This document shows, in pieces, positions 6,001 to 9,000 of a DNA stretch of 41,721 nucleotides (the stretch's first letter is position 1; each line of letters starts with the position of its first letter). Source of the DNA: a virus (Duplodnaviria > Heunggongvirae > Uroviricota > Caudoviricetes); the IMG/VR virus record IMGVR_UViG_646311923_000005. One strand, given 5' to 3'. The position numbers are program-made.

Positions 6001-9000
6001 TTCTTGCTCGTTATGATAATTGTCTGGTTTTGTCTACTTCTTTCAATGCAGGTAGTAAAAGGTTTGTCATTTATCAATCAGCACAAGATAAGAATCTTCA
6101 GGTTGATATTGTAAGGACCAGAATTTAATTGGCTGCATAAATAATATTTTAAGTTGCAAGTTGGCTATTCGTAGGAATAGAACCTTAGGCATGCTGAATG
6201 CGTTTTCTGAACATTGTTTTATAAACTGTGTCTGCTTGCTGTTGTGATCCTGCTTTTAGTGATGGTGATGATGGATTTCACCAGCAGGATAATGTTGGTA
6301 CTGACTGATGGCGCTCTGGTCTGCGGCATTGTGGTATTGCTGTGGCCGATGATGAAAGAACAGAATGCATAATTCTTGACTTTTTTGTTTACTGTTTATT
6401 AAAAAATCAACCGCATGGTGAATCCTCCTTGGAGGGGCTAAATGATCGAGTTTTAAGGGCACGTAGCGAGTTCTGTTTGATCATTGCAGAACTTAGCGGG
6501 AGGCGCCATGCGTACATCACTAGTGTTATTCCTTTTATCATTTTCCTTGTGAGTTCTGGCTGCGCATTGCGCAGCCTTTTTTTTATGACCTGCCACTGGC
6601 AGATGGTCATCCTGTGATTTGATTCCGCTTCCGGCTTTTTAACTCTGTTCCTCTACACGGGAGAAATTCGATGTCGATTAAACATTACGATGTTGTCAGG
6701 GCGGCGTCGCCGTCAGACCTTGCGGAAAAGCTGACACACAAACTGAAAGAGGGCTGGCAGCCATACGGCGGACCGGTTGCCATTACGCCGTACACACTGA
6801 TGCAGGCGGTGGCTATTGAAGGAGATCCACAGGTCGGCCCTTCATCTGAGCCGGACTGGTTCTACGTGGTTGTGCTTGCCGGACAGTCCAACGGCATGGC
6901 CTACGGTGAAGGGCTTCCGTTACCGGATTCTTACGATGCTCCGGATCCGCGCATTAAACAGCTGGCGCGCCGCAGCACGGTAACTCCGGGTGGAGAGAGT
7001 TGTACGTATAACGACATCATTCCGGCTGACCACTGCCTGCATGATGTGCAGGATATGAGTACGCTGAATCATCCGAAGGCAGACCTGAGCAAAGGGCAGT
7101 ACGGCTGTGTCGGCCAGGGCTTACATATTGCCAAAAAACTGCTTCCGTATATCCCGAATAACGCGGGGATCCTGCTGGTACCATGCTGTCGTGGTGGTTC
7201 GGCATTTACCCAGGGCGCGGAGGGGACATTCAGCGAGTCCACGGGGGCCAGTCAGGATTCGGCACGCTGGGGGGTGGGCAAGCCGTTATATCAGGACCTG
7301 ATTGCGCGCACCAAAGCTGCATTACAGAAGAACCCGAAAAATGTGTTGCTGGCGGTGTGCTGGATGCAGGGTGAGTTTGACATGAGCGCCGCCACCCACG
7401 CACAGCAACCTGCGCTGTTTACAGCCATGCTGACACAGTTTCGTGCTGACCTCTCCGTGTTTAACGCGCAGTGCCATGGTGGCAGTGCTGCAGATGTGCC
7501 GTGGGTTTGTGGTGACACGACGTATTACTGGAAAAATACATACGCTACCCAGTACGACACCGTGTACGGCGGGTATAAAAACAGGGAGAGTGAGGGCGTT
7601 TATTTTGTGCCCTTCATGACAGATGGTAACGGCGTCAATACCGCCACTAACGCGCCGGCAGAAGATCCGGATATTCCGGCATCAGGATATTACGGTGCGG
7701 CATCGAGAACGAATGGAAACCAGGTATCATCAAACCGCCCGACACATTTCAGTTCATGGGCGCGCAGGAGCATTATTCCGGATCGTCTGGCAACCGCTAT
7801 TCTGAACGCAGCCGGGCGCACCTCAGCCTTCATCAGTGGTAAGGCACCGGAAATCAAACCCTCGCCCGGCGGCAACACGCCATCGGGTCCGTCTGCAGAT
7901 ACGTCCGTTCGCACAATCTCCCTGCTGCCGGCAGCCGGAGAGGCTGCTGCGCAGGGCTGGAGCATTAAGGATGGCGGAATTCAGTTGTCAGATGGTGTAT
8001 TTAAGATCACCAAGCAGAGCAATAAAACCTGGTCCCTGACGCATCCGGTGGATGACGCAATTACCCTGCTGACACAGGGCGGCAGACTGACCTGTAAGTT
8101 CCGCCTGTCAGGCGCACTGACCAACAATCAGTTCGGGCTGGGGATTTATCTGTATACGGATGCTCCCGTTCCTGATGGTGTGGCGATGACGGGTACCGGT
8201 AATCCGTTCCTGATGTCGTACTTCACTCAGACCACTGACGGCAGAGTGAATCTGATGCATCACAGGAAAGCCGGAAACACGAAGCTGGGGGAGTTCGGCG
8301 ATTACGGTAACGACTGGCAGACGCTGGAGCTGGTGTTCACCGCCGGCAGTGCCACGGTTACTCCGAAACTGAATGGAGTGGCTGGCCCGGCATTCCAGGT
8401 TATAAAAGACAGTCTGACACTGGGACTGAATGCGCTGACGCTGACGGATGTTACAAAAAATGCAGCGTATGGCGTTGAGATAGAAAGTCTGATGCTGGAG
8501 ATAAATGCACCGGCAGCATAATAAAAAAAGCCAGCGACTGACCTGAAAAAGAAGACGCTGGCTAAAAGGCCTTATATGTTTGTAGAGACTTATTTTTCAC
8601 AGACAGCAATGATGCCTGTCAATATATTATCAATATGCGGATTGTTTCAGTTACAGATGCCTTATTAAGGAAAAAAACAGCCAGCACTGACTTTCGGTGG
8701 AGAGGTGCTGGCTCAAAAGGATAGATGTACTTCACATGTTGCTTCTATATGGCAGTACATTTTCTGACAGACAGTGACGGATGTTGTCAAGATATTGTGT
8801 CATTTATAACCTGAATCAGGGGAGGCCGGAATGTTATCTGGCATTTTTAGCAGAGCCTGAATGCCATAATCACGGCTCCCGGCGTTGGCCGTCAGTGGGT
8901 GACACTGGCGGCTTTTTTGTTTTTCTTTACTTTCATTTTCTGTCGGCGGTGACGGAGACATACATCAGATGGAAAAAATCACAACAGGTGTGTCATACAC

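Follow-up and report, generated by a model that had tools for sequence, protein, structure and literature searches.

Escherichia coli encodes sialate O-acetylesterases of the NanS family in two contexts, namely NanS itself (YjhS), a single-domain enzyme of the chromosomal nanCMS operon that is not phage-borne and has neither a DUF1737 nor a lectin-like domain, and NanS-p, which is encoded by prophages. The catalytic residues of NanS are Ser19 and His301; Gln18 sits in the oxyanion hole, and a catalytic Asp is absent (PMC9063846). For prophages of EDL933 and O104:H4, both Shiga toxin (Stx) and non-Stx ones, recombinant NanS-p enzymes are reported to be active, to allow growth on 5-N-acetyl-9-O-acetylneuraminic acid (Neu5,9Ac2) and to deacetylate mucin glycans (PMC8065619, PMC10462455). 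The C-terminal domain of NanS-p is reported to adopt a lectin-like jelly-roll fold (Franke 2020), and mitomycin C induces nanS-p along with stx2a (PMC10462455). The closest described phage protein to the one studied here is gp71 of phage 434, annotated as 'SASA family carbohydrate esterase' (OL657226; Feiss et al. 2022, PMC9119081), which is also 616 residues long and differs at 9 positions (99% amino acid identity). Here we analyse the nanS-p locus of IMG/VR virus record IMGVR_UViG_646311923_000005 (Caudoviricetes), a stretch of 41,721 nucleotides referred to below as the window, which by its gene content is a defective phage-434-like prophage that is inserted at the lambda attachment site and carries effector genes of the cif and nle types.

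The open reading frame at 6671-8521 is an intact, functional-looking allele of the prophage gene nanS-p, encoding a predicted sialate 9-O-acetylesterase. The gene and the domains of its product are the following:

6671-8521, plus strand: nanS-p, three-domain sialate O-acetylesterase of 616 residues, with an ATG start and zero internal stops
6680-6817, plus strand: DUF1737, residues 4-49 (Pfam, E=2e-15)
residues 66-262, plus strand: SASA Pfam domain, sialic-acid-specific acetylesterase (E=1e-12)
6848-7807, plus strand: NanS-like SGNH/SASA catalytic domain, residues 60-379, with Gln72-Ser73 and His359
7931-8509, plus strand: lectin-like DUF6645 domain, residues 421-613 (Pfam DUF6645 at residues 467-577, E=5e-18)

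The DUF1737, SASA and DUF6645 scores all exceed the Pfam gathering cut-offs, and a sequence search against the PDB matched residues 60-379 to E. coli NanS/YjhS (3pt5, E=3.9e-121) and residues 421-613 to the NanS-p C-terminal domain solved by crystallography (6yp6, E=1.1e-29). The first-pass annotation had described a nanS-p-like esterase of 616 residues with a DUF1737-like N-terminus, and this description is borne out by the three Pfam domains and the two PDB matches, which are far from the low similarity to the NanS-p/YjhS family that would speak against the assignment. Alignment to the nanS-p alleles of Stx phages, which it had proposed as a check, gave 99-100% coverage, with 96% identity to the Stx1a type and 52-56% to the 933W/phi24B type. 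Gln18, Ser19 and His301 of NanS align to Gln72 and Ser73 (in the motif GQSN) and His359 (in RPTHFSS), and the equivalents of these three residues are unchanged across the five NanS-p alleles compared. Like NanS, the window protein has no catalytic Asp. Its block IV reads RPTH, the same motif as published for one Stx2a-prophage allele (PMC10462455). All nine nanS-p alleles compared are open reading frames, and the pairwise ratio of nonsynonymous to synonymous substitution rates (dN/dS) between the window allele and the eight others is 0.08-0.21, which indicates purifying selection on nanS-p.

The comparison with Stx phages delimits a module to which this gene belongs. Between the window and the Stx1a phage LC567831, blastn homology is confined to 6658-9175 (96%), a block that begins 13 nucleotides 5' of the nanS-p ATG and closes with the final base of the holin gene S, with unrelated sequence flanking it on both sides. 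The alignments with phi24B and BP-4795 obtained by blastn also start at window position 6658. Outside this block, a GC-rich hairpin at 6558 forms a small conserved island, located 113-127 nucleotides 5' of nanS-p in the window, phage 434, Stx1a_EH1995, phi24B and BP-4795; for a non-Stx O157 prophage the alignment shows a sequence variant of it, and prophages of the ST131 (sequence type 131) and 4621 types do not have it. The features of the late region of the window are:

4427-5200, plus strand: antiterminator Q of the phage 82/21 type (PF06323, E=2e-91; 'Q82-like' in phage 434)
5184-5212, plus strand: putative late promoter pR' (TTGCAA-17-TATACT), which shares sequence with the end of Q, proposed from a consensus scan and from its position
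5246-5267, plus strand: intrinsic terminator, tR'-like, with a 9-bp stem and T-run (counterpart annotated in phage 434, at 5850-5875 of the 434 extract)
5370-6128, plus strand: hydrophobic protein of 252 residues, putative membrane protein (247 residues from the annotated start at 5385)
6214-6372, plus strand: DUF3927/TciB-like small membrane protein of 52 residues (phrog_1470, E=9e-17; same label in 434 and RefSeq relatives)
6429-6617, in the cargo interval: open reading frame of 62 residues, labelled putative membrane protein in 434
6558-6576, plus strand: GC-rich hairpin followed by T8, terminator-like, 113 nucleotides 5' of nanS-p (8-bp stem, 7 GC)
6658-6670, plus strand: Shine-Dalgarno region (GGGAG) of nanS-p, where the module in common with Stx phages begins on the left (blastn)
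8887-8913, plus strand: terminator-like hairpin in the spacer between nanS-p and S, with an 11-bp stem and T-run (terminator annotated at the equivalent place of 434)
8969-9175, plus strand: class II (P21-type) pinholin S (PF04971, E=1e-32)
9175-9672, plus strand: signal-arrest-release (SAR) endolysin (PF00959, E=1e-45)
9657-10106, plus strand: Rz spanin (PF03245, E=2e-34)

The longest reading frame for Q begins at a GTG at 4427, and the start annotated in relatives lies at about 4511; RefSeq relatives carry the label 'bacteriophage antitermination protein Q'. The pR' candidate occupies the position of the late-promoter region of phage 434, just 5' of the terminator annotated there. A consensus scan for a dedicated nanS-p promoter between the 6558 hairpin and the ATG found none.

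The interval between Q and nanS-p holds different genes in different phages and prophages:

LC567831 and BP-4795: stx1AB
PA2: tRNAs and stx2AB
ST131 prophage: DNA methylase, tRNAs, DUF3927 and IraM
strain 4621 prophage: methylase, tRNAs and IraM
non-Stx O157:H7 prophage: CPBP protease, helix-turn-helix protein and tRNAs
window, phage 434 and phage 2B8: membrane protein and DUF3927

It is therefore well supported at the nucleotide level that nanS-p and S form a fixed module and that the interval from Q to nanS-p is a moron slot with differing cargo. The earlier suggestion of a shared late-region scaffold with an exchangeable toxin slot holds, given the sharp blastn edge at 6658 and the case-by-case difference in cargo, with unrelated AT-rich genes instead of stx1AB in the window and three non-Stx prophages having yet other genes in its place.

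The 5' end of nanS-p is itself conserved at the nucleotide level. In every allele comparison codons 1-30 have 82-96% nucleotide identity, with third positions at 67-93%, and codons 31-60 are the most variable stretch, with 37-66%. The conserved ribosome-binding site and first 30 codons could plausibly serve as a homology arm for cargo exchange. Further downstream, the alleles are recombination patchworks, in which the differences from the 434 and Stx1a alleles fall in blocks within the first 720 nucleotides: between the window and 434 there are 51 differences, clustered at nucleotides 181-450 and 631-720, and 0 at nucleotides 721-1848, while against the Stx1a gene codons 121-616 have 98-100% nucleotide identity and codons 31-120 only 66-84%. 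This provides a nucleotide-level view of cargo exchange in front of a constant nanS-p-S module, with its sharp edge, conserved 5' island and patchwork alleles. An exchange in the laboratory is on record as well: in phage 434B the whole block from Q to S, about 5.5 kb with Q and the late promoter as well as the lysis region, was replaced by a DLP12 segment, and plaques were still formed (PMC9119081); by annotation, the DLP12 segment in 434B has nmpC::IS5 and no esterase gene. nanS-p shows decay in some lineages. The prophage of E. coli strain 222 has only a DUF1737 remnant of it (4994-5340 of the extract), annotated as an incomplete pseudogene and placed between IraM and the holin gene.

In the window the place between Q and nanS-p that holds stxA and stxB in Stx-converting late regions is taken by the membrane protein and DUF3927 genes. 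A tblastn search with Stx1A and Stx1B against the whole window gave a best E-value of 0.55, so that a hidden or degraded stx was rejected, these being chance matches, and the first-pass annotation was right to describe the esterase gene as present without stx. Among the scanned reading frames of the Q-to-S interval, toxin families had zero matches. The cargo has a low GC content, 0.378 at 5001-6000, compared to 0.560 at 7001-8000 in the esterase gene. Its 252-residue protein matches phrog_1521 ('unknown function', E=2e-154), is 100% identical to gp68 of phage 434 ('putative membrane protein') and was found in only 3 deposited phage records (phages 434 and 2B8). It had zero Pfam, NCBIfam and PADLOC matches, and the idea that the upstream cargo is a known defence or toxin gene was rejected, as these three resources returned nothing and PHROG only families of unknown function, with no large-database homology search made. 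The tRNA genes typical of stx-flanking regions number zero in the whole window, and the only Rfam match in it is the frameshift pseudoknot of an IS3 element.

In a megablast of the gene alone against 5426 complete E. coli genomes, nanS-p matches occur in 1719 of these, at 7168 places in total and up to 14 per genome, and at least 1391 genomes contain 80% or more of the window gene. A joint between stx2B and nanS-p was found in 316 genomes and one between stx1B and nanS-p in 203, which leaves at least about 870 genomes with a near-full nanS-p and zero toxin-linked copies. Most copies of nanS-p in E. coli, including those of ST131 and other non-STEC strains (STEC, Shiga toxin-producing E. coli), thus adjoin no toxin gene. 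The statement that the gene normally lies just downstream of stx2 did not survive this count; in addition, the stx2-linked alleles are only 52-56% identical to that of the window, and the closest toxin-linked allele follows stx1a. Both arrangements can occur in one cell, as strain 2011C-4251 has a 99.5%-identical copy of the window prophage and a separate Stx1a phage with its own nanS-p. The value of these data is one of correction, in that nanS-p is not a marker of Stx phages. They carry little weight as a discovery, because nanS-p in non-Stx prophages has already been published (PMC10462455, PMC8065619), as has its contribution to growth on O-acetylated sialic acid, and phage 434 as deposited shows precisely this arrangement of genes, so that nothing here is new.

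Taking these results together, we consider it very probable that the window gene is a nanS-p allele of the late operon, transcribed from pR' in a Q-dependent manner, released by lysis and acting in the deacetylation of Neu5,9Ac2, and that it belongs to a fixed nanS-p-S module beside a moron slot. In the mechanism we propose by analogy, Q would let RNA polymerase pass tR' and the 6558 hairpin, and only then would nanS-p be transcribed from pR'. Inspection by eye, with no predictor run, revealed no signal-peptide-like N-terminus in the window NanS-p, and we infer for this reason that the enzyme would exit the cell upon lysis by the pinholin and the SAR endolysin. It would then use its SGNH domain to strip 9-O-acetyl groups from Neu5,9Ac2 on mucin glycans, aided by the lectin-like C-terminal domain, and the sialic acid would thereby become usable by surviving sibling lysogens.

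Several observations weigh against this proposal. The promoter scan as a whole was not enriched over shuffled sequences, so that it is the position of the pR' candidate that speaks for it. Compared to phage 434, about 11.7 kb of the early region are missing, from xis to ninB and including cI, N, pR, O and P; the prophage is therefore defective and its own Q has no obvious source of transcription, so that nanS-p may depend for its expression on read-through or on a Q protein of matching type that another prophage supplies in trans. The C-terminal domain is 37% identical to the crystallised one, and one of the four proposed sugar-binding aromatics is replaced (F611 by L584), as are two Tyr by Phe. 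Finally, a 2026 preprint reports the phi24B homologue gp84 as a virion protein, which speaks for a role centred on the phage; its residues 2-57, corresponding to DUF1737, were modelled as a hexamer that plugs the hexon in the middle of every T=9 face (bioRxiv 10.64898/2026.04.10.717836).

The last of these points leads to the alternative that survives best, although we regard it as unlikely: NanS-p would mainly be a virion component, with a DUF1737 hexamer holding it to the hexons of the capsid; its other two domains, esterase and lectin, would serve the phage, for example in adhesion to or passage through mucus, and the feeding of lysogens would be secondary. In favour of this, gp84 is abundant in purified phi24B virions and proteolytically processed (same preprint), the first 30 residues of gp84 and of the window NanS-p are about 80% identical, and nanS-p is a late gene, as structural genes are. 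The window allele, however, has a 3-residue gap, and with it a shorter loop, where the Tyr42 'tooth' loop by which phi24B gp84 is anchored would fall, and the head genes of the window are of the lambda gpE/gpD type and do not point to a T=9 capsid with face-centre hexons. By icosahedral geometry, a T=7 lattice is not known to offer a hexon at the face centre such as phi24B uses, which also counts against a virion role. Furthermore, the same short-loop DUF1737 variant occurs with heads that have an S78 protease-major capsid protein (MCP) fusion (Stx1a_EH1995 and BP-4795), whose MCP has no detectable similarity to gpE, and with both lambda-type and HNH-type packaging modules. This indicates that the domain does not track capsid type, and a capsid-specific anchor, with DUF1737 variants co-varying with head type, was looked for and not seen in what is a small sample. 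Phage 434B, which has no nanS-p, is still plaque-forming, so the gene is dispensable for plaques (PMC9119081), and phages 434 and 434B make a convenient laboratory pair for studying the effect of NanS-p on the phage.

Since near-identical DUF1737 variants occur with at least two head types whose MCPs show no detectable sequence similarity, and third positions are unusually conserved in codons 1-30, two further readings of this region may be put forward tentatively, although they are doubtful: DUF1737 could be a capsid-binding module of no single capsid type, or the first 30 codons could chiefly be an anchor for recombination at the DNA level that keeps the slot exchangeable among phages whose heads are unrelated. 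If the former were true, 434-like virions, with lambda-type gpD-decorated capsids, would also carry a processed sialate esterase.

A second alternative is that nanS-p is a silent passenger in this prophage and owes its intactness only to expressed paralogues at other loci, whose sequence repeatedly replaces it through gene conversion; we find this improbable. The missing early region and the absence of an evident promoter for Q would fit with it, as would the up to 14 matching places in related genomes and the patchwork alleles, of which the comparison with 434 (identical beyond nucleotide 720, clustered differences before) is an example. However, it is established for lambdoid phages that pR'/qut can respond to a Q of matching type supplied in trans, and both the reading frame and the ribosome-binding site of nanS-p are intact, with a dN/dS of about 0.1-0.2. 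In addition, a review states that the EDL933 prophage NanS-p enzymes analysed (seven vs. 10) were all active as produced from their alleles (PMC8065619). The weakest alternative, which we consider very unlikely, is that NanS-p acts on bacterial surface glycans, removing O-acetyl groups from O-antigen or capsule for adsorption or progeny release in the manner of a receptor-destroying enzyme: a review raises it as an open possibility, with no experimental support (PMC8065619), and it would suit a phage-borne, late gene with strong differences between alleles in the carbohydrate-binding C-terminal domain (37% identity), as expected for tracking variable surface glycans. Against it, over about 320 residues the catalytic domain gives a close alignment, interrupted by no large gaps, with chromosomal NanS, which acts on free Neu5,9Ac2, and near-identical alleles are found in the unrelated serotypes O45:H2, O103:H2 and O157:H7.

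The prophage that carries the gene is rearranged at its left end (window 1-1030), where a lambda/434-type integrase gene that has lost its first ~15 codons is fused at 1026/1027 to the remnant of a DNA adenine methylase gene. Upstream of Q lie, in order, genes for NinG, a NinI-type phosphatase and, on the minus strand, LpxR. The gene for LpxR, a lipid A 3'-O-deacylase, spans 3075-4034 on the opposite strand and is AT-rich (GC content 0.39); it is a second moron, in the nin-Q region. In phage 434 this place is flanked on one side by what is left of a lambda-type Q, a short N-terminal piece, and on the other by the functional Q, which is of the Q82 type. The head genes are of the lambda type (gpA, portal, S49 protease, gpD and the gpE MCP) and are followed by a lambda-type tail, Lom and a side tail fibre. 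The right end contains an island of type III secretion system effectors, which extends over 34311-40566:

34311-35291: NleB2
35325-35615: NleC remnant
35924-36814: NleH
37126-37863 (ATG reading frame): Cif, for which relatives annotate a longer product of 274 residues
38364-38990: NleG/DUF1076
39328-40566, minus strand: NleA
41245-41721: ybhB, outside the island, at the end of the window

Over the first 25 kb, prophages with 99.2-99.7% identity are present in 79 complete genomes, which include STEC O45:H2 and serogroup O121. An IS3-family insertion sequence (IS) of 1310 bp, at 10731-12040, interrupts a Rha-family gene that starts at 10256; the ALIL frameshift pseudoknot of this element lies at 11589-11705 on the minus strand. 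The 99.5%-identical prophage of strain 2011C-4251 has an identical IS at the joint of the integrase/methylase deletion (extract 1319-2628), and its Rha gene is intact.

Among the named relatives, phage 434 has the same neighbours as the window, in the form of LpxR, the Q82-type Q, the 247-residue membrane protein, DUF3927, the esterase, the pinholin and the SAR endolysin, and the 4.8-kb Q-to-S segment at 4400-9200 is 98.9% identical to it in nucleotide sequence over the full length. At least 80% of this segment is covered in 294 complete E. coli genomes. In contrast to the window prophage with its early deletion, phage 434 is complete and viable; the window prophage, for its part, has the IS3 element in the Rha gene and a fuller set of effectors, of which 434 has only remnants of the island.

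The NanS-p of Stx1a phages (for example Stx1_EH1995/LC567831 and YYZ-2008), encoded directly 3' of stx1AB, is 96% identical to that of the window over 616 residues, and these phages also share the spacer downstream of nanS-p and the holin gene S. They differ in the stx1A/stx1B cargo, in the type of Q, in the endolysin and in the head, which has the S78 protease-MCP fusion. The BP-4795 allele is 59% identical.

The NanS-p of phi24B and 933W (vb_24B_21, gp84) resembles that of the window in domain order and in the SGNH blocks with the catalytic Ser and His, and its gene likewise lies between the Q-controlled cargo and S. The phi24B allele is 56% identical overall, and tblastn gave 52-55% for Stx2 phage alleles; by domain, identity to phi24B gp84 is 62% in DUF1737, 71% in the catalytic domain and 37% in the C-terminal domain. 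Compared to those of 933W and phi24B, the window protein is 29 residues shorter, is without the Tyr42 loop and has a first linker of reduced length, and its prophage has head genes of a lambda-type siphovirus, whereas phi24B is a T=9 podovirus. With chromosomal NanS (3pt5) the likeness is limited to the catalytic domain, where the Gln-Ser pair of block I and the His of block IV are kept.

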